64,000 bases of DNA from an uncultured Candidatus Saccharibacteria bacterium (GTDB taxonomy: Bacteria > Patescibacteriota > Minisyncoccia > Phycocordibacterales > UBA9973), in NCBI GenBank assembly GCA_964634365.1, contig CAZWJU010000001.1, forward strand, positions 167,028 through 231,027, written 5' to 3'. The stretch's first letter is position 1; each line of letters starts with the position of its first letter. The notes under the pieces were generated by a model. It had not been told where the DNA came from. It saw nothing but the letters and a program-made list of their open reading frames with translations, and searched no databases. This document shows positions 19,345-38,137 of this stretch, piece after piece. Position numbers and translations under genes: made by a program.

Positions 19345-21231
19345 TTATTGAACAGTTACAGATTTGGCGAGATTTCTTGGTTTGTCTATATTGTTTCCTA
19401 ACTGCTTAGCAAAATAGTAAGCAAACAACTGTAATGGAATAACTTCGACAAGTGGATACATCAGAGCGTTGGACAGCTTTGGTATGACTATAACCTCGTC
19501 AGCATGTCTCATAACAGGAGCTTTTGCGCCCTCTTCGTCTGTAATCACTAGTATTCTTCCACCTTTTGATTTTATTTGCTCTATGGATATAGAGCCGATA
19601 GAAAACAAATCATCTTTCGGCAAGATCACGACAGATAGCGAAGATTCGTCTATGACAGCCATCGGTCCATGCTTGAGTTCACCCAGAGGGTAACTTCCCG
19701 CTTCCATATATGTAAGTTCTTTAAATTTAAGCGCGCCTTCGTATGCAATAGGCATATGTATTCCTCTACCTAAAAATTGAATTTTTTCTATATCTCGAAA
19801 AACTTCTGCTACTCTTTCTATTTCTTTATGATTTTCCAAAACCCTCTTCATCAATTCAGGAATAGCCTCGAGCTCTTTTACAAATGCTATACCCGCACTT
19901 TCACTCATACCATGAACTCTAGCTAGTGACAGACTAAACAAATAAAGTGTTATTGCTTGTGCTGTAAAAGCTTTTGTAGACGCGACACCAATCTCTGTCC
20001 CTGCGCGTGTATATATACCGGCATCACTCTCATGCGCTATTGCACTACCAACAACATTTACTATTCCTAGTGTAGTAAAACCTTTGCGCTTCATCTCCTT
20101 CAAAGATTCTAGAGTATCTGCAGTTTCTCCTGATTGACTGATACTTAAAAATACTGAGTTATCGGGGCTAAAGTTTTGTTTTCTATATCTAAATTCAGAA
20201 GCAATTTGCGCAGATACGTTTATAGGTGTCATACTCTCAATCAGCTCTTTGCCGAGCATACCTGCATTGTAAGCAGTTCCACAACCTACAATGTAAAGAT
20301 TTTCTATAGTTCTAAGTTTTTCTTTGTAATCAATAAGTCCACCTAAAACAGCCAAACCTCCATCTATGTTTGTTCTACCTAGTATTGTAGAGCGAGTTGT
20401 AGCTGGTTGCTCAAAGATCTCTTTTTGCATAAAAGTATCGAAATCCCCTTTCGATAAATCTTCGAGCAAAATACCTTCTATTATCTGTTCAGCTTTGTAG
20501 ACACGAGATCTTGCTGGTTGTTTGTATTTAAATATGTTGTGAGACATGTTCTCTGCATCAAGCTTAGCCATCTCGCCATCTTCTAAAACCAAATACCGAT
20601 CAGTGTACCTCAATATTGCATTTGTACTAGACGCAACAACAAACATCTCATTTTGTATTCCGATACTAATAGGACTACCATTTTTTACAACATAAAGATT
20701 TTTAGGATAATCTTTATGTATTATAGCTAGACCAAAACTCCCTTCTAAGAGAGACGCTGTCTCGACAATCGCGTCTTCTAAGCTTAAACCATTTTTGATT
20801 TTTTCTTCTATCAAATGTGGTACTACTTCTGTGTCAGTGTCGGACTTAAAATCATGTCCCAAGCTTTTCAAATTTTCTTTTAAAGACTCATAGTTCAATA
20901 TTGTTCCATTGTGAACAACCGCTATAGACTCTTCGCAATCAAGATGTGGATGAGCGTTTGATATTGAAGGCTTGCCGTGTGTTGCCCATCTGTTGTGACC
21001 TATTCCTACTGTAGTAAAAACTTTCTCTTCACCTATATTCTTCTTAAAACTACCGATGTCCATGTATTGACTTGGAGCACCCAAACATTTTCCTGTCTTT
21101 ATATTTTTCTTGTGAACAATCGCAATACCCGCACTATCATATCCGCGATATTCTAAATCTATTAGTGATTGAACCAAATTTTCTGATAACTCACTCTCTT
21201 CTTTTTTTAGTATTCCGATTATTCCACACAT
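19345..21231 (-). CDS. glmS: Glutamine--fructose-6-phosphate aminotransferase
   Basis: An MCGIIG N-terminal nucleophile domain is followed by two SIS domains. Confidence 0.9.
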   Translation of the reverse strand: MCGIIGILKKEESELSENLVQSLIDLEYRGYDSAGIAIVHKKNIKTGKCLGAPSQYMDIGSFKKNIGEEKVFTTVGIGHNRWATHGKPSISNAHPHLDCEESIAVVHNGTILNYESLKENLKSLGHDFKSDTDTEVVPHLIEEKIKNGLSLEDAIVETASLLEGSFGLAIIHKDYPKNLYVVKNGSPISIGIQNEMFVVASSTNAILRYTDRYLVLEDGEMAKLDAENMSHNIFKYKQPARSRVYKAEQIIEGILLEDLSKGDFDTFMQKEIFEQPATTRSTILGRTNIDGGLAVLGGLIDYKEKLRTIENLYIVGCGTAYNAGMLGKELIESMTPINVSAQIASEFRYRKQNFSPDNSVFLSISQSGETADTLESLKEMKRKGFTTLGIVNVVGSAIAHESDAGIYTRAGTEIGVASTKAFTAQAITLYLFSLSLARVHGMSESAGIAFVKELEAIPELMKRVLENHKEIERVAEVFRDIEKIQFLGRGIHMPIAYEGALKFKELTYMEAGSYPLGELKHGPMAVIDESSLSVVILPKDDLFSIGSISIEQIKSKGGRILVITDEEGAKAPVMRHADEVIVIPKLSNALMYPLVEVIPLQLFAYYFAKQLGNNIDKPRNLAKSVTVQ

Positions 21232-26161: not shown

Positions 26162-26210
26162 GGATTTATTTTAACAAAAAACAACCCAAATTATAAGTAT
26201 TTTTAGATAC

Positions 26211-26239
26211 TTGACAAATGCATATAAATATGCTATACT
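26211..26239 (+). promoter_or_regulatory. Consensus promoter TTGACA-17-TGcTATACT (extended -10)
   Basis: The sequence ttgacaaatgcatataaatatgctatact matches the consensus exactly. Confidence 0.6.
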
Positions 26240-26385: not shown

Positions 26386-26398
26386 AAAATTAGTATAC

Positions 26399-26427
26399 TT
26401 GACAAATAAATACTAATATGCTATGAT
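26399..26427 (+). promoter_or_regulatory. Consensus promoter TTGACA-17-TGcTATGAT (extended -10)
   Basis: The sequence ttgacaaataaatactaatatgctatgat matches the consensus. Confidence 0.6.
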
Positions 26428-29948: not shown

Positions 29949-31564
<1,616 letters not shown>

Positions 31565-31568
31565 AAAT

Positions 31569-32453
31569 TTAACTAACACTTGCCATTCCGGCACTAATTT
31601 CTGATATTTCTTTTGTGATCGCAGCCTGACGCGCTTTGTTGAACGCCAGTGTCAGATCATCGATCATTTCTCCTGCAGCTTCCGACGCATTCTTCATCGC
31701 CATCATGCGAGAGGACTGTTCAGACGCACTAGACTCTAAGAGCATTTGATACACCTGACTTCGTGCAAGTTTCTCTACAAGTGCAGACATGAGGACTTCA
31801 TACCCTGGCTCGAAAGTATAGGAATAGTTTGTAGAATGAGCCATTTGATCTAAATCTTCTACAGACTCTCGAACTTCATCTTTCGATATTGGAAGAAGCT
31901 GACGGACAACTGGTTTTTGAACAAGTGGATTTAGAAAATCTGTATAAGCAACAGATACCTTATCGTATTTTTCATTTTTGAAATCACTGATTATGAGATC
32001 TGCAATCGGCAATATTTCACGAAGTGTTGCGTTTTCTGGAAGCTCTAAGAACGAAGCGACGACATTTTGCCCGAGTCTTCGAAGTGCATTCTCGCCTTTT
32101 TTACCAACTGCAACGAAATCAATTTGCTGACCTTCGCTTTCACGGATCATTTGTAAAATCTTGCGGATAATCTGTGCGTTGTATGCACCACAGAGTCCAC
32201 GGTTGGAAGTTATGAGCACAACAAGAGACTTGCCACCTGTACGCTTTGTAAGTAATGCATGTTCTGATTCATTTTGAACAACAGACAGAGCCTCGAGTAG
32301 CGTCCAAGATTCGTGTGCATATGGACGAGACGAGACAGCTGAAGCAACGGCGCGCTTCATTTTGGAAGCAGAAACCAGCTCCATCGCTTTGGTTATCTTC
32401 TTAGTGTTTTTAACACTCTTTATTCGTCTTTTTATATCAAGTGATCCTGCCAT
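31569..32453 (-). CDS. atpG: F1 ATP synthase subunit gamma
   Basis: The product begins MAGSLDIKRRIKSVKNTKKITKAMELVSASKMKRA and has a conserved gamma C-terminus. Confidence 0.9.
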   Translation of the reverse strand: MAGSLDIKRRIKSVKNTKKITKAMELVSASKMKRAVASAVSSRPYAHESWTLLEALSVVQNESEHALLTKRTGGKSLVVLITSNRGLCGAYNAQIIRKILQMIRESEGQQIDFVAVGKKGENALRRLGQNVVASFLELPENATLREILPIADLIISDFKNEKYDKVSVAYTDFLNPLVQKPVVRQLLPISKDEVRESVEDLDQMAHSTNYSYTFEPGYEVLMSALVEKLARSQVYQMLLESSASEQSSRMMAMKNASEAAGEMIDDLTLAFNKARQAAITKEISEISAGMASVS

Positions 32454-32460
32454 AATAAAA
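32425..32460 (-). repeat. Repeat copy R1: atpG translation-initiation region (TAA-ttttatt-ATGGCAGGATCACTTGATATAAAAAG)
   Basis: This is one of three near-identical copies; see the findings. Confidence 0.8.
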
Positions 32461-32796
32461 TTAGGAACCTATTGAAAATAATAATATTATTCCTACAACT
32501 GCAAATACACAGTTAACAATCGAAACAGACATCAATGCTATATCTCCTTTTATACGTCCGACATTCTCAGTCTTTCGCATACAGCTTATCAGAGACTTAA
32601 TTACTCCACTAAGCGAAAAAATAATAGTCAAAACTACTAGAGAAATTAGCACAAGGAAAAATGGGCGTACCAAATCGCCAAGTTCAGCTTGTCTCGAGAT
32701 CAAAAAAGCAAAAGATAAGGATTCCAATATCCAAAGAATTGTCAGCGTGATATTTATTTTTATTAGTGTGTTTTTCATATCAAGTGATCCTGCCAT
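32461..32796 (-). CDS. Small 3-TM membrane protein, paralog C (the first 6 codons MAGSLD are a copy of the atpG start; the true start may be MKNT at 32778)
   Basis: It is paralogous to the two upstream ORFs in TM spacing and in the motif SLSGVIKSLISCMRKTEN. Confidence 0.5.
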   Translation of the reverse strand: MAGSLDMKNTLIKINITLTILWILESLSFAFLISRQAELGDLVRPFFLVLISLVVLTIIFSLSGVIKSLISCMRKTENVGRIKGDIALMSVSIVNCVFAVVGIILLFSIGS

Positions 32797-32806
32797 AAAT
32801 TAATAA
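32771..32806 (-). repeat. Repeat copy R2 (TAA-ttt-ATGGCAGGATCACTTGATATGAAAAAC)
   Basis: This copy is identical to R1 over about 27 nt except for 1 to 2 positions. Confidence 0.8.
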
Positions 32807-33141
32807 ATATTATTTTTGAATAAATTTGTAATTGCAAAGAAACCAACACTGCATACAAGAAGTGCTATCGATACAACACGCAACTTCCTTTCAAATCCCA
32901 ACATCAATGGATTATTCAATCGATTAATTTTTCTAGCACGCAGGAGACCTGAAACAGCAAAGACACAAGAGAACACTAGTAGGACAAAGGAAGAAATATA
33001 AGAAATCAGCATTGCCCAGAAAAAATATATATTCTGAGAATCAGCACCTAGGAAAAAAATAAGAATAATTACAACCCAAATTCCAACCAATATTTGATTG
33101 GTTCGGTAAATAAATTTTTCTGTTGTGTCTTTGTTTTCCAT
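32800..33141 (-). CDS. Small 3-TM membrane protein, paralog B
   Basis: The 113-aa product has the motif AVSGLLRARKINRLNNP between TM2 and TM3. Confidence 0.5.
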   Translation of the reverse strand: MENKDTTEKFIYRTNQILVGIWVVIILIFFLGADSQNIYFFWAMLISYISSFVLLVFSCVFAVSGLLRARKINRLNNPLMLGFERKLRVVSIALLVCSVGFFAITNLFKNNIY

Positions 33142-33154
33142 AATTGGTTAGGTT

Positions 33155-33190
33155 TATCTTTTTATATCAAGTGATTCTGCCATAAAATTA
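33155..33190 (-). repeat. Repeat copy R3 (TAA-tttt-ATGGCAGAATCACTTGATATAAAAAGATAA, forming a 9-codon mini-ORF MAESLDIKR)
   Basis: This is the third copy and differs by G to A at one position. Coordinates are +/-2. Confidence 0.75.
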
Positions 33191-33553
33191 ATGATTAAAT
33201 GAAAAAATAAATACGAGAACACAAAGTGTTAACATTCCCATAAGAATATTGGTAATTGAATACATAAACAATCCTTTATGCTTACCATCAAGAGGACTTG
33301 GGTTTTTTCTTTTAAAACCAGATAGGCGGATTATCGAAGAGATTCCAAATACTAATGAGAGTATCACCAAAAAAGGACTAATAAACATTAAAAACAAAAC
33401 AAAAATAATTCCGAAAAACGAAGTAGATTGACTAAAATATTCGCGATTATTTCCTATATTTTGGATCAATGTAATTATTAACAAGAGTACCCATGTTCCC
33501 CACAGGATTGAAATTATCTTATTTGTTTTTAGAATAAGATTTAATTTTTGCAT
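33188..33553 (-). CDS. Small 3-TM membrane protein, paralog A
   Basis: The 121-aa product has the motif GISSIIRLSGFKRKNPSP. The gene starts 3 nt after the atpA stop region. Confidence 0.5.
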   Translation of the reverse strand: MQKLNLILKTNKIISILWGTWVLLLIITLIQNIGNNREYFSQSTSFFGIIFVLFLMFISPFLVILSLVFGISSIIRLSGFKRKNPSPLDGKHKGLFMYSITNILMGMLTLCVLVFIFSFNH

Positions 33554-33555
33554 AA

Positions 33556-35058
33556 TTAGTTAAACGTGCTCTTAAAACTCTCAATCGTTTCTTTTAATTT
33601 AACTTCACTCTCATCACTCCACATTTTCTTCTCCACCACATCAGTCACAAATTCTTTACAATTTGCTTCTACATAGTCGATAAGCCCTGCTTCAAATTCC
33701 TTGATCTTCGCTACAGGTATCGTGTCCATGTATCCGCGAGTAAGTGCGTAAAGTGAGATTACTTGGTGTTGTACAAGCATCGGTGAGTACTGAGTTTGCT
33801 TGAGGAGTTCAACTGCACGGCGTCCGCGTTCGATCTGATTGCGAGTTGCTTGGTCAAGATCAGAACCGAATTGTGCAAATGCTTCTAGTTCACGGAACTG
33901 TGCAAGGTCGAGTTTCAAAGTTCCAGCCACTTTCTTCATAGCTTTGATCTGAGCAGAACCTCCCACACGAGACACAGAAAATCCGACGTTTACCGCAGGA
34001 CGAATACCTTTGTAGAAAAGGTCAGTTTCGAGGAATATCTGTCCGTCAGTGATAGAGATCACGTTTGTCGGGATGTATGCACTGATGTCTCCAGCTTGAG
34101 TTTCGATGATAGGAAGAGCTGTGATAGATCCTCCGCCGTGTTCAGGATTGCGACGACATGCACGTTCAAGAAGTCTTGAGTGAAGGTAAAAGACGTCTCC
34201 AGGATACGCTTCACGTCCTGGTGGTCGACGAAGAAGAAGCGAGATTTCACGATACGCAACTGCGTGCTTTGAAAGATCATCGTATATGATGAGCGCATCT
34301 TGGCCTTTGTGCATAAAATATTCTGCGATTGTAATACCTGCATAAGGAGCAAGGTATTGCATCGGAGATGGATCTGATGCTCCTGCCGAAACTATGACTG
34401 TATAGTCCATCGCTCCAGCTTCGCGAAGACGAGTTTCGAGTGCGCGGAGTTTTGAATCTTTTTGTCCGATAGCGACATACACGCAGATCATGTTCTGACC
34501 TTTTTGGTTCAATATTGTATCGATTGCGATTGCAGTTTTACCAGTTTGTCTGTCACCGATGATAAGCTCACGTTGTCCTCGTCCTACTGGAACAAGCGCA
34601 TCGATAGCTTTGATACCAGTTTGTACTGGTTGATCTACTGACTGACGAGTAATAACTCCCGGAGCGACGGATTCGATCGGCATATTTTTCTCTACCTTGA
34701 TATCACCTTTACCGTCGAGAGCTTGTCCGAGTGGATTAACAACACGTCCGACGATAGAGCCACCGACACCGATTTCAAGAATCTTACCTGTAAGACGAAC
34801 CTCCTGACCCTCTTTGATATTTCCGTAACCACCCAAGATGATAATACCTACTGTGTCGTCTTCTAGGTTTAAGGCTACACCTGTCGCACCATCTTCGAAA
34901 GTAACCATCTCAGACATCTTTACTCCGCGAAGTCCTGATACACGAGCAATACCATCTCCGACTTCAAGCACAGTACCTATCTCTTCACGAACAGCACCAC
35001 CATGGAAGCCGGCGATTTCATTTTTCAATTGTTCAATTATGTGTTTTGTGTTGGACAT
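33556..35058 (-). CDS. atpA: F1 ATP synthase subunit alpha
   Basis: The product has Walker [10 protein letters not shown]. Confidence 0.95.
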
Positions 35059-35502: not shown

Positions 35503-36000
35503 TTAATTAAATTCTTTTACTGCTCCTTCTGATATCTTTGACTTTAGTTTTTCATCCATAACATCACCCAGTATCTTTTCTGCACTAGACACAACCAAGT
35601 GAGCCAACTCCTTTTTGGCCTCACCGAGCATTTTTGCCTTCTCTGCTTCAAGTTCCATGCGACCATTTTCGACAAGCTTTTGTGAATCTAGAGATGCTTT
35701 TACAAGCAAATCTTCGCGAATTTTTTCTGCATCTTTTTTTGCTTCGCTTATTAATACGAGAGATTCTTTGCGAGCCTCAGCAATAATCTTTTTATATTCT
35801 TCTTCAGTTTCTAAAAGCATTTCTTTATGCTTTTTTGCGTCTGTGAGACCAGTTGCGATCTTCACACTTCTTTCATCCATCAACTTGCCAAGTGGCTTGA
35901 TAGCAAATTTATACAATACAACAATCACTATCGCAAAGTTAACCATCTGAGCAATGATAAGTTTCCAGTCTATGTGAAATGTGTCTATAAGTGAATCCAT
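35503..36000 (-). CDS. atpF: ATP synthase Fo subunit b
   Basis: An N-terminal TM is followed by a long charged helix. Confidence 0.85.
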   Translation of the reverse strand: MDSLIDTFHIDWKLIIAQMVNFAIVIVVLYKFAIKPLGKLMDERSVKIATGLTDAKKHKEMLLETEEEYKKIIAEARKESLVLISEAKKDAEKIREDLLVKASLDSQKLVENGRMELEAEKAKMLGEAKKELAHLVVSSAEKILGDVMDEKLKSKISEGAVKEFN

Positions 36001-36016
36001 TTTTATAAAAAATTAA

Positions 36017-36313
36017 TTATATTTCTCCGTAATAGCTCTTGACCCTTTTTACAAATTCATCTACATCATCTTTGTGTAGCATGTAATCATGGTAAGAACC
36101 CGTACCTTTACCCTCTTTATCAAAAACATTTTTTAACTTCAAACCTTCGCCAAGATTTTCATAATCTGCATCTAGTCCATCAACAAATCTGCTTATGTAC
36201 TGGGTTTGTCTACCACCAAGAAGCTTTCTTGCTATGTCACTCATCTTTACAAACCCTTCCATGTCACAAGGTAAATTCTCGGGATTTTGATTTTCTTCAA
36301 TTTTTATTTTCAT
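36017..36313 (-). CDS. Soluble ~98-aa protein of unknown function encoded between atpE and atpF (start taken as MKIKIEENQ)
   Basis: The ORF lies on the operon strand and fills the 390-nt c-to-b subunit gap. It has no TM helix. The longer ORF-track version overlaps atpE. Confidence 0.45.
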   Translation of the reverse strand: MKIKIEENQNPENLPCDMEGFVKMSDIARKLLGGRQTQYISRFVDGLDADYENLGEGLKLKNVFDKEGKGTGSYHDYMLHKDDVDEFVKRVKSYYGEI

Positions 36314-37608: not shown

Positions 37609-37896
37609 TTATTTTACTTCTAATTTATTTTTGCTTTCATTTTCAATATCTGAAATAGCCTTCTTGGATTGTTTGACTATTAAAACCAGAGAAACCACAA
37701 AAGCTACGGCTATAAGAGAAAAGAAAAAAATCTTACCTGTACTAAAATATTTATCTAAAAATTTACCCAGCAAAACTGCAACGATTATCGGACCAGCTAT
37801 ATATCCTGATACTTGCACAAAAAACAAAACAGCACCGCGCCACCAAATAGTATTTTTTTTGTTATATTTTTCTATTTGTGTACTATTTTGATCCAT
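37609..37896 (-). CDS. AtpZ/AtpI-like small membrane protein preceding atpB
   Basis: The 95-aa product has 2 TM helices and sits immediately upstream of atpB. Confidence 0.5.
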   Translation of the reverse strand: MDQNSTQIEKYNKKNTIWWRGAVLFFVQVSGYIAGPIIVAVLLGKFLDKYFSTGKIFFFSLIAVAFVVSLVLIVKQSKKAISDIENESKNKLEVK

Positions 37897-37937: not shown

Positions 37938-38065
37938 ATATAATTTACTCGTCGTCACTCGTAAATTTCTGCGATCCCGCCTCGCGATTTTGTGTGCTCA
38001 CAAAATATCGCTCCGGCTCTCACTACGGTCAAAAAATTAAAGAAGTTTAATTTTTTGACTCTCAG

Positions 38066-38137
38066 TGAGCGTGGATGGAATCGGACCATCGACCTCTGTC
38101 TTATCAGGACAGCGTTCTACCACTGAACTACACGCTC
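38066..38137 (-). tRNA. tRNA-Ile (anticodon GAU), CCA not encoded
   Basis: The reverse-complement folds as a cloverleaf: acceptor GAGCGTG/CACGCTC, D arm GTTC..GAAC, anticodon stem CTGTC/GACAG with loop CTGATAA, and T arm GATGG-TTCGATT-CCATC. An upstream TTGCTA-17-TGcTATAGT promoter lies at about 38190..38220. Confidence 0.85.

Follow-up and report, generated by a model that had tools for sequence, protein, structure and literature searches.

The atpA/atpG junction in the ATP synthase operon of a Nomurabacteria-like lineage is, as we hold with moderate confidence, a flexible islet in which diverged alleles are stacked and swapped by recombination, and the small membrane-protein genes found there (X1, X2 and X3) are passengers. 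If so, an essential, highly conserved operon in a reduced genome of the Patescibacteria can contain a micro-islet that varies between strains. The junction lies within a 64-kb stretch of DNA that was analysed as a whole and is called the window below. In the literature, we found no report of atpA/atpG inserts or of a Patescibacteria ATP synthase operon.

Three small genes inside a conserved operon

On the minus strand the gene order is atpZ-like (PF09527), atpB, atpE, atpF, atpH, atpA, X1-X3, atpG, atpD, atpC. Order and coordinates confirm the canonical F-type operon that an earlier note on this DNA had described, and the three open reading frames of 121, 113 and 105-111 aa that it had placed between atpA and atpG are present. 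Its spacing of 3 to 14 nt was wrong for X1 and X2: neighbouring genes of the islet are separated by 2-7 nt, and by 46 nt between these two, where a copy of the atpG start is located. The features are as follows.

36017 to 36313, minus strand: 98-aa soluble ORF at the atpE/atpF junction, a third variable slot (gene call in L001)
33556 to 35058, minus strand: atpA (F1 alpha, 500 aa), left conserved anchor of the variable slot
33188 to 33553, minus strand: X1, 121-aa 3-TM protein, strain-variable cassette in slot 1
33157 to 33185, minus strand: R1, copy of the atpG start with 28 of 29 nt identical, between X1 and X2
32800 to 33141, minus strand: X2, 113-aa 3-TM protein, by ORF and TM prediction
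32770 to 32798, minus strand: R2, copy of the atpG start with 26 of 29 nt identical, containing the first ATG of annotated X3 (MAGSLD-MKN...)
32461 to 32796, minus strand: X3, 3-TM protein of 111 aa (first ATG) or 105 aa (second ATG, at 32778), conserved family member in the clade
32427 to 32455, minus strand: R3, the real start of atpG (TTATGGCAGGATCACTTGATATAAAAAGA), with which the other copies are compared
31569 to 32453, minus strand: atpG (F1 gamma, 294 aa), right conserved anchor; Pfam ATP-synt, E = 1.4e-89
31340 to 31561, minus strand: 73-aa (up to 84-aa) single-TM ORF at the atpG/atpD junction, a second variable slot

The left anchor atpA matches the Pfam families ATP-synt_ab_N, ATP-synt_ab and ATP-synt_ab_C (best E = 2.5e-84), and the AtpZ-like gene at the operon head (37609-37896) matches PF09527 with E = 1.1e-06. 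At the atpG/atpD junction, relatives carry unrelated ORFs of 184 aa, 148 aa or 92 aa; a duplication of the atpD start was searched for there and not found. The 98-aa ORF between atpE and atpF is 71% identical in L083 and missing from L084 and L088, and it gave no family match in Pfam, NCBIfam, PHROGs or PADLOC. Terminator-like sites in the operon are no commoner than in shuffled sequence, and together with the tight gene spacing this suggests that the X genes are co-transcribed and translated.

Each X protein contains three hydrophobic segments, and the loop between TM2 and TM3 is rich in K and R with a net charge of +5 to +7. The shared 3-TM topology with a basic TM2-TM3 loop that had been proposed earlier is thus borne out for all three, and from these properties an N-in/C-out topology in the inner membrane is predicted, with the basic loop on the cytoplasmic side. 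An AlphaFold2 model of X3 shows three helices at low confidence (pLDDT 63), and a Foldseek search of the PDB with this model returned nothing at E <= 0.001.

The three proteins are 20-24% identical to each other at the amino acid level and 40-42% at the nucleotide level, the latter being near chance. Pairwise BLASTP gave E values of 0.005-0.03 and hhalign probabilities of 3-21%. In Smith-Waterman alignments, X1-X2 and X1-X3 scored 79 and 69 (shuffle means ~34-36, sd ~6), the X2-X3 pair alone was not significant, and in the set including X4 five of the six pairs scored 3-8 sd above shuffles. The case for kinship comes from the Smith-Waterman scores against shuffles and decoys and from transitivity, not from BLASTP or hhalign. 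Judged by these sequence comparisons, X1-X3 probably form one tiny, lineage-restricted and very diverged family. The description as diverged paralogs holds as a probable distant kinship, although the similarity is much weaker than had been stated.

When X1-X4 and the alternative cassettes described below were searched against Pfam, NCBIfam, PHROGs and PADLOC, the X proteins showed no significant match. A hit to DUF6773 (E = 0.006) stayed below its cut-off. In hmmscan of X1-X3 against Pfam, neither ATP-synt_I (PF03899) nor ATPase_gene1 (PF09527) was matched at E <= 1. Consistent with the earlier statement that known accessory genes do not occur at this position, X1-X3 have no significant match to AtpI, AtpZ or any entry of these four collections. 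V-ATPase subunit e2 was considered as a relative and rejected, since a PDB profile search gave only E = 0.36, which was taken as chance. The X family comprises only 3 representative clusters among 1.84e9 proteins. Collection scans revealed further members in the L094-type organism only, and no relatives were found in viral contigs scanned with the family alignment or in metagenomes scanned with the X3 alignment. Every known member (X1-X4 and P0013) is located at the atpA/atpG junction, with none elsewhere among the 1.84e9 representatives.

Copies of the atpG start between the genes

The three R copies, which the earlier note had missed, are 90-97% identical and spaced 343 and 387 nt apart. By chance 0 such copies would be expected, and they form the strongest local direct repeat within the window. 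They are better conserved than the gene bodies between them (40-42% nt). To within ~2 nt, R1 and R2 stop at one and the same point of atpG. R1 forms a mini-ORF, MAESLDIKR* (33154-33183), which is followed 12 nt later by the ATG of X2. In sister strains the R1 ATG is lost (ATAGCAGAATC..., AGAGCAGAGTC...), so R1 is a relic in decay whose start is not conserved; a translated leader was ruled out for the same reason. The annotated N-terminus of X3, MAGSLDMK, is a copy of the MAGSLDIK of atpG. In relatives, R2 is present but has decayed in different ways (ATGACAGGATCACTAGGTATG; 6 nt deleted in L084; upstream ATG gone in L083), which indicates that the conserved start of X3 is the second ATG at 32778. 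The R3 sequence also opens atpG in L094, and differs by one change each in L084, L086 and L098. R2 co-varies with the local atpG start, with CTT in both in the window and CTA in both in L086. It is common to lineages with an atpA dS of ~1, yet is 26/29 identical to the atpG of the window; this is a point against the stacking model given below, which would need repeated recombinational refreshing of R2 or some constraint on it.

No R copy is present between atpA and the first cassette, nor in the L094-type genome with a single X gene. Upstream duplications of gene starts were surveyed for 9 atp genes in 100 loci: atpG gave 17, the other eight genes gave 0 (437 starts) and the controls 0. Start duplications were likewise not found at other operon junctions or elsewhere in the 64-kb window. 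Two further independent lineages carry an atpG-start duplication, namely L030 and L003, the latter detected only with a shorter 24-nt probe. The L003 relic encodes MASTKEIKRRI like the resident atpG and differs from it at 10/33 nt. As all of these changes are synonymous, the relic diverged as a functional atpG elsewhere, i.e. it derives from a foreign atpG. The duplicated length varies by lineage (~19, 27-29 and 33 nt).

Folding of the three R regions gave no significant hairpin (z-scores 0.35, -0.99 and 0.99 versus shuffles), and a search of Rfam gave no match; a structured RNA, a terminator and an attC site were ruled out on these grounds. The AGGA in R2 was also considered as a Shine-Dalgarno sequence for X3 and rejected, as no recognisable SD motifs were seen upstream of the genes inspected in this window, namely those of the operon and adjacent ones.

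Variation of the slot and origin of the array

Slot 1 is occupied here by X1; in its place L088-L091 have a soluble protein of 174 aa, and L092/L093 one of 119 aa. This exchange occurs among strains that are 93-100% identical in the flanks, and it breaks exactly at the atpA stop and at R1. Throughout, the X2 protein is 100% identical in 9 contigs spanning the three slot-1 types, with nucleotide differences that are only synonymous. Across the clade (88-99% atpA identity), nine arrangements were observed with 1-3 X genes plus unrelated cargo, and the islet measures 0.3-1.2 kb inside the single operon. The cargo in the same slot includes a pyrophosphatase-like protein and a weakly GNAT-like protein: a 118-aa cassette has a real PF00719 match, and the GNAT-like match of the 174-aa cassette (E = 0.011) is below the cut-off. 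In other lineages the junction carries an MntA/HepT pair, a Bro-N protein or a PQ-loop protein. The more distant Patescibacteria loci that were scanned by tblastn encode no X relative, and atpA abuts atpG in all but 16 of them.

The individual genes have different histories. X2 has an orthologue, P0013, that is the single occupant of the junction in L094-L096 and shares 47% amino acid identity with it, where atpA of the same comparison is 89% identical. X3 has orthologues with 74-86% identity, located beside quite different partner genes in other genomes. These contain many invariant polar residues (WI.ESLSF, Q.EL.D.VR, RKTEN), and with a dN/dS of 0.23-0.49 X3 is under purifying selection. In the same genome pairs the dS of X3 is 0.27-0.65, well below that of atpA/atpG (0.88-1.37). 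Sliding identity between the window and L088 is 99-100% in R1, X2 and the start of X3, 92-96% in the 3′ half of atpA and 72-77% in a patch of atpF, revealing a mosaic operon.

These patterns suggest that the array arose from stacking of alleles that had diverged in separate lineages, rather than from recent triplication in place. DNA from a relative with an atpA-Y-atpG layout would recombine homologously within atpA, and its other end would join illegitimately just upstream of the resident cassette. The gene Y would thereby arrive together with the 5′ end of the donor atpG, which would be left behind as the scar R. The atpA gene and the R copies would then offer two-sided homology, so that homologous recombination could swap the slot contents and partly refresh R. 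What would be expected of stacked alleles is seen at several levels: the cassettes have their nearest relatives outside their own array (X2 with P0013 at 47% versus 20-24%, the partners of X3, the contents of slot 1), the boundaries hold relics of a neighbouring gene (R1, R2 and the L003 relic, the last with the divergence of a foreign atpG), and the identity of the anchor flank is mosaic (window versus L088). Natural competence has been described for Saccharibacteria, which belong to the Patescibacteria (PMC10633639). Against the model, no possible donor was found in which X1 alone separates atpA from atpG, or in which the gene for the 174-aa or the 119-aa protein adjoins atpG, so that the proposed stacking intermediates were not observed.

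The earlier note had proposed a tandem triplication. In such an origin, one ancestral X gene with ~27 nt of the atpG 5′ end attached would have undergone two rounds of duplication in situ by unequal crossing-over; the copies would then have diverged, the similarity of R being kept by gene conversion with atpG or by selection. The X-R-X-R-X-R form with its periods of 343 and 387 nt would fit such an origin, as would the shared length, topology and weak collinear similarity of the three proteins and the co-variation of R2 with the atpG start of its own genome (CTT here, CTA in L086); the nearly identical end points of R1 and R2 in atpG could likewise reflect the copying of a single unit. It is nevertheless not the best description, and we consider it unlikely. 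The bodies are at near-chance nucleotide identity (40-42%) where R remains at 90-97%, and loss of the R1 ATG in sister strains means that R1 is not selected as a start. X2 is closer to P0013, the sole occupant in a genome without an R relic (47%), than to X1 or X3 (20-24%). Furthermore, X1 is replaceable, with non-X genes in slot 1 of near-identical strains, and the dS of X3 lies below that of its neighbours. Another possible origin is site-specific capture, with R as the attachment site of a recombinase and serial, integron-like insertion of promoterless cassettes upstream of atpG. The alternation of ORF and site, a first cassette that differs in close strains, the duplication of only the atpG start in three independent lineages, and typical mobile cargo in other lineages (a toxin-antitoxin pair and a Bro-N protein) all speak for it. 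On the other hand, R has neither a significant hairpin (z from -1.0 to +1.0) nor an Rfam match, no copy precedes the first cassette, and the duplicated length is not constant between lineages (~19, 27-29, 33 nt). The synonymous divergence of the L003 relic, typical of a foreign atpG, fits imported flanking DNA and not a target-site copy. In L083 and L084, the annotated genes up to ~6 kb away include no recombinase; those with a Pfam label are prfA, an RRM protein, atp genes, prs, DUF1295 and SIMPL. Capture of this kind is accordingly very hard to credit. Only slightly less remote is the broader idea that the atpG-5′ repeat is the working recombination site of an undescribed cassette-capture platform, with the X family as its characteristic cargo, possibly modulating or protecting Fo. 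If this were true, the atp operon, with its strong and constitutive expression, would serve Patescibacteria as a place to insert accessory genes, among them fast-evolving membrane and toxin-antitoxin genes.

Role of the X proteins and comparison with known systems

Along with the islet reading of the junction, the X proteins are probably co-transcribed passengers and not ATP synthase subunits. They would be expressed by read-through of the strongly transcribed atp operon, and they may be dispensable, fast-evolving membrane proteins instead of stoichiometric subunits. As a guess, their role could lie in the envelope, in interaction or in protection, under relaxed or diversifying selection.

The opposite view makes them lineage-specific Fo accessory subunits or assembly factors, analogous to AtpI, AtpZ or V-ATPase subunit e; being a view of function, it would go with stacking as well as with triplication. 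A functional tie would predict the observed linkage of the family to the atpA/atpG junction in every genome that has X, and the purifying selection and invariant polar residues of X3 as well as the weak, non-significant subunit e2 profile match (E = 0.36) point the same way. A stoichiometric subunit should occur wherever the enzyme occurs in relatives, but the distant Patescibacteria loci scanned have no X relative and in most of them atpA abuts atpG. Copy number (1-3) and identity vary in close strains, X1 can be replaced by soluble proteins and unrelated cargo enters the same slot. The X genes also diverge far faster than their Fo partners would (X2 47% versus atpA 89%), an intramembrane Glu conserved in X3 is missing from X1 and X2, and there is no similarity to AtpI at E <= 1. 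The suggestion of lineage-specific subunits in the earlier note is therefore quite improbable. Its other suggestion, an unrelated co-transcribed membrane system, comes closer to the evidence, with co-transcription itself being deduced from the gene layout. It could finally be argued that at least one of the ORFs, above all X1 as an orphan, is untranslated, and that the region is decaying junk tolerated between atpA and atpG. The sole match of X1 among 5.8e9 proteins is itself (identical copies), its GC content of 27.6% is the lowest in the operon, and the R relics are decaying. Against this, about 8% stop codons are expected at this base composition by our own calculation, and 121 open codons in DNA of 28% GC have a chance probability of ~3e-5, again as calculated by us. 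The X1 frame spans exactly from 2 nt past the atpA stop to 4 nt before R1. With the expected stop frequency and such an exact fit between neighbours, open frames of 113-121 codons are not due to chance. X1 moreover has the three TM segments of its relatives X2 and X3, to which it is significantly similar, in a clean arrangement that obeys the positive-inside rule. Purifying selection is clear for X3, and X2 changes only synonymously. We thus give next to no weight to untranslated ORFs.

For the interpretation of similar loci, a small membrane ORF inside an ATPase operon need not be a new subunit. The X family would be one more clade-restricted family of orphan membrane proteins, for which an envelope, host/phage interaction or Fo role is conceivable. 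Under the stacking model, the atpG-5′ scar would record the entry route of foreign cassettes and then make the cassettes modular, which would make it possible to follow, at the level of the sequence, how an uncultured and probably naturally competent group gains genes by recombination.

Small size, hydrophobicity and location within the ATPase operon are shared with bacterial AtpI/UncI, AtpZ and the AtpQ/AtpR of N-ATPases, and the first two properties also with V-ATPase subunit e. In sequence, the X proteins are not similar to these families (AtpI none at E <= 1; e2 only E = 0.36). AtpI and AtpZ are encoded at the 5′ operon head, upstream of atpB, whereas the X genes are located between the alpha and gamma genes, and the operon head has its own AtpZ-like gene besides them. 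Unlike known rotary-ATPase accessory proteins, X is variable in copy number and its genes seem dispensable among close strains.

Flexible genomic islets, or hotspots of horizontal gene transfer, occupy a fixed position bounded by core genes, and their accessory genes differ in close strains and are exchanged via homologous recombination in the flanks. The junction studied here resembles them in its fixed position between core genes and its strain-differing accessory content. It differs in being only 0.3-1.2 kb long, in lying within one operon and in having short, portable homology scars between the cassettes. With integron arrays it shares the ORF-site-ORF-site layout, promoterless cassettes read from an upstream promoter and strain-variable content, but R does not fold into an attC-like hairpin, IntI was not found within ~6 kb in L083 and L084, the first cassette is not preceded by a site, and the 'site' is a copy of a host gene start.

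Homology-facilitated illegitimate recombination (HFIR) has been proposed for the arrays of orphan immunity genes at T6SS loci of Vibrio cholerae and for orphan modules of Rhs/CDI loci (PMC5361080). As in these arrays, heterogeneous small diverged genes pile up beside a conserved anchor gene, flanks are mosaic, content differs in close strains and no dedicated integrase is known; newcomers with one homologous and one illegitimate end, and older cassettes that are kept and pushed along, are what we propose here. The differences are that the anchors are housekeeping ATP synthase genes in an essential operon, that the scar consists of the beginning of atpG, the gene downstream, and that the cassettes encode orphan 3-TM proteins beside which neither a toxin nor an effector gene was found, in or next to the array, with PADLOC, Pfam and PHROGs.

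The three ORFs between atpA and atpG

A complete F1Fo operon is encoded on the minus strand of the window. The three ORFs of 121, 113 and 105-111 aa that the earlier note placed between atpA and atpG are present (X1, X2 and X3). Its spacing of 3-14 nt has to be corrected, as the gap from X1 to X2 is 46 nt and holds a copy of the atpG start (R).

Features of the operon (window coordinates, all on the minus strand)
37609-37896: atpZ-like gene (PF09527)
Between the atpZ-like gene and atpA: atpB, atpE, atpF, atpH
36017-36313: 98-aa soluble ORF at atpE/atpF (143 aa in the ORF listing, then overlapping atpE)
33556-35058: atpA
33188-33553: X1, ORF of 121 aa
33157-33185: R1, 28/29 identical to R3, 4 nt past the X1 stop
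32800-33141: X2, ORF of 113 aa
32770-32798: R2, at the X3 'start', 26/29 identical to R3 (MAGSLDMK... vs MAGSLDIK... in atpG)
32461-32796: X3, ORF of 111 aa (105 aa if the second ATG at 32778 is used)
32427-32455: R3, start of atpG itself, reference copy
31569-32453: atpG
31340-31561: single-TM ORF of 73-84 aa at atpG/atpD
After atpG: atpD, atpC

A tRNA-Ile (GAT) gene (38065-38137, minus strand) lies ~170 nt upstream of the atpZ-like gene and separates an RRM-protein gene from the operon.

The common 3-TM topology and basic TM2-TM3 loop described earlier were seen in all three X proteins. In each, a K/R-rich N-terminus (+2 to +3) precedes three hydrophobic segments; the first loop between these is neutral or acidic and the TM2-TM3 loop strongly basic (+5 to +7), which implies an N-in/C-out topology. 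For ten X3 orthologues, AlphaFold2 modelled three helices, with low confidence (pLDDT 63). Direct pairwise similarity is weak, with BLASTP E-values of 0.005-0.03 and hhalign probabilities of 3-21%. Smith-Waterman scores were 79 for X1-X2 and 69 for X1-X3 (shuffle means ~34-36, sd ~6), and X4, a fourth relative from locus L086, scored 68, 79 and 65 against X1, X2 and X3. These scores are well above both composition shuffles and other small 3-TM ORFs of the same genomes; the X2-X3 pair by itself was not significant. The multiple alignment is collinear, with a common N-terminal N..(I/L)W, an F..(S/T)G closing TM2 and the basic loop. On this evidence we accept the three proteins as one family, by transitivity rather than from every pair directly. 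The family has very few members: when 1.84 billion representative proteins were searched exhaustively with a profile, the X3 cluster, X1 and a single X2-like protein (P0013, from L094) were all that came back. The HMM searches that had been proposed found no relatives in Pfam, NCBIfam, PHROGs, PADLOC or PDB.

Copies of the atpG start

The feature is richer than the earlier note described, which overlooked R. The minus strand of the window holds three copies of the atpG start TTATGGCAGGATCACTTGATATAAAAAGA; no matches are expected by chance, and these are the top local direct repeats across the whole window. R1 encodes a mini-ORF, MAESLDIKR*, followed after 12 nt by the X2 ATG. Its own ATG is missing in sister strains carrying the 174-aa and 119-aa arrangements, which marks R1 as a decaying relic. 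R2 is retained before X3 in relatives and decayed to varying degrees, pointing to the second ATG as the conserved X3 start.

Two other direct repeats were recorded in the window. A 30-nt repeat, ATACTTGACAAATGCATATAAATATGCTAT (26207-26236 and 26395-26424, 87% identical, 188 nt apart), includes a promoter-like TTGACA...TATAAAT in a region without long ORFs. A 25-nt repeat (20061-20085 and 21000-21024, 92% identical, 939 nt apart) lies within a 628-aa ORF (19345-21231) and may reflect an internal repeat of the encoded protein.

Variability of the junction among relatives

The synteny check suggested earlier showed small TM ORFs recurring at the junction within one clade. Among ~69 loci of distant Patescibacteria, atpA abuts atpG in most, and none of those scanned encodes an X relative. 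Gaps of >120 nt occur in 16 of them, the majority holding unrelated genes. Pfam matches in this cargo include a lycopene-cyclase-domain protein with an NTP_transf_2/HepT toxin-antitoxin pair (L006), a Bro-N protein (L030), a PQ-loop protein (L065) and a protein matching PsbP_2 (L003). In L006 (4967-5986) the lycopene-cyclase-domain protein is a small membrane protein, and the nucleotidyltransferase of the pair is MntA-like. In the X-bearing clade atpA is 88-99% identical, and nine arrangements were found.

Arrangements at atpA/atpG in the X-bearing clade (compared loci)
X2-like only, without R copy: L094-L096
X3 only: L098
72 aa, X3: L083
118-aa pyrophosphatase-like, X3: L084, L085, L099, L100
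133 aa, X3: L097
133 aa, X3, X4: L086, L087
X1, X2, X3: window, L001, L002
174 aa, X2, X3: L088-L091
119 aa, X2, X3: L092, L093

The nearest X2 relative (47%) is the sole junction occupant in another lineage. Strains with X1, the 174-aa or the 119-aa gene in the first position, each with X2 and X3, have flanks that are 93-100% identical, and homology between the variants breaks exactly at the last atpA codons and at or just before R1.

The atpE/atpF, atpG/atpD and (in relatives) atpH/atpA junctions are also variable, but without start-copy scars. The atpE/atpF junction is another variable slot: its 98-aa ORF, which has no family match, is 71% identical in L083 and missing from L084 and L088. 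At atpG/atpD, relatives carry unrelated ORFs of 184, 148 or 92 aa, and no atpD-start duplication was found among the inserts that many distant Patescibacteria have there. The atpH/atpA junction of L087 (1127-1348) and L088 (2510-2731) holds a 73-aa ORF, signal-anchored and containing Cys, which the window lacks.

Role of the X proteins and origin of the array

X3 is a genuine gene: its dN/dS of 0.23-0.49 shows purifying selection, and it has invariant polar residues in a periplasmic loop, a Glu embedded in the membrane and the motif RKTEN. Strain differences in X2 are synonymous only; no X1 orthologue was found. For the near-identical pair L088/window, X3 dN/dS is ~1, and selection may be locally relaxed or diversifying in the loop after RKTEN. 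Six amino acid differences between L088 (5184-5501) and the window (32461-32778) cluster in this cytoplasmic loop (CMRKTENVGRIKGDIAL vs CMPKTENVGLIEGGVTL).

We infer co-transcription of the X genes with the operon because gene spacing is tight and terminator-like matches are no commoner than in shuffled sequence; between atpA and atpG only weak ones occur, within X1 and X2. No Shine-Dalgarno-like motifs were seen upstream of ~20 window genes (26.5-40 kb), whose leaders are A/T-rich. Initiation in this genome thus appears SD-independent, and initiation signals are uninformative for the X genes.

All known X family members are located at the atpA/atpG junction, as would be expected of a stoichiometric subunit or of an Fo-associated assembly or accessory factor. 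We consider such a role unlikely, since the distant loci scanned do without an X relative, X copy number ranges from 1 to 3, soluble proteins stand in for X1 in close strains, the family diverges fast compared with Fo and F1 genes, and unrelated cargo occupies the same slot. For these reasons the X proteins are most likely co-transcribed passenger membrane proteins.

The R copies are 90-97% identical, whereas the gene bodies are near chance (40-42% in nucleotides, 20-24% in amino acids), which suggests that the junctions formed long after X1, X2 and X3 had diverged, or that R has been refreshed. Between genomes, X3 dS (0.27-0.65) is well under that of adjacent atpA and atpG (0.88-1.37), indicating that X3 was exchanged separately and more recently. 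Identity between the window and L088 is 84% in atpB-atpE, 90% in atpF-atpH, 92-96% in the 3' half of atpA and 99-100% from R1 through X2 to the X3 start, a mosaic that fits a replacement tract from within atpA to R1. A patch of atpF (35775-35925) is just 72-85% identical to L088, with neighbouring segments at 91-99%, and suggests a tract from a more distant lineage.

When the first 27 nt of each atp gene were sought upstream of that gene in 100 loci, 17 copies turned up for atpG and none for the eight others (437 starts) or in controls. The duplication was also seen in two further independent lineages. In L030 the Bro-N gene starts with MAGTKE, a copy of the atpG start. In L003, 10 of the 33 nt of the relic MASTKEIKRRI differ from the resident atpG, every change being synonymous, so this copy diverged as a working atpG of a different lineage and arrived together with the insert.

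Together, these observations fit homology-facilitated illegitimate recombination. Homology within atpA would serve as the anchor, the other end would be joined illegitimately, upstream of the cassette already in place, and the donor atpG 5' end would stay behind as a scar. Afterwards, atpA and R could serve ordinary two-sided homologous recombination. No donor intermediates for this stacking were found. Natural competence has been demonstrated in Patescibacteria (PMC10633639).

The observation is real, and its reading as a 'tandem triplication of accessory subunits' finds support only in part. A flexible islet or cassette stack shaped by recombination describes the feature best. What makes it unusual is its place within an essential operon and the atpG-5' scars that mark it. 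Its closest described analogue is found in Vibrio T6SS loci, where orphan immunity genes are stacked (PMC5361080).
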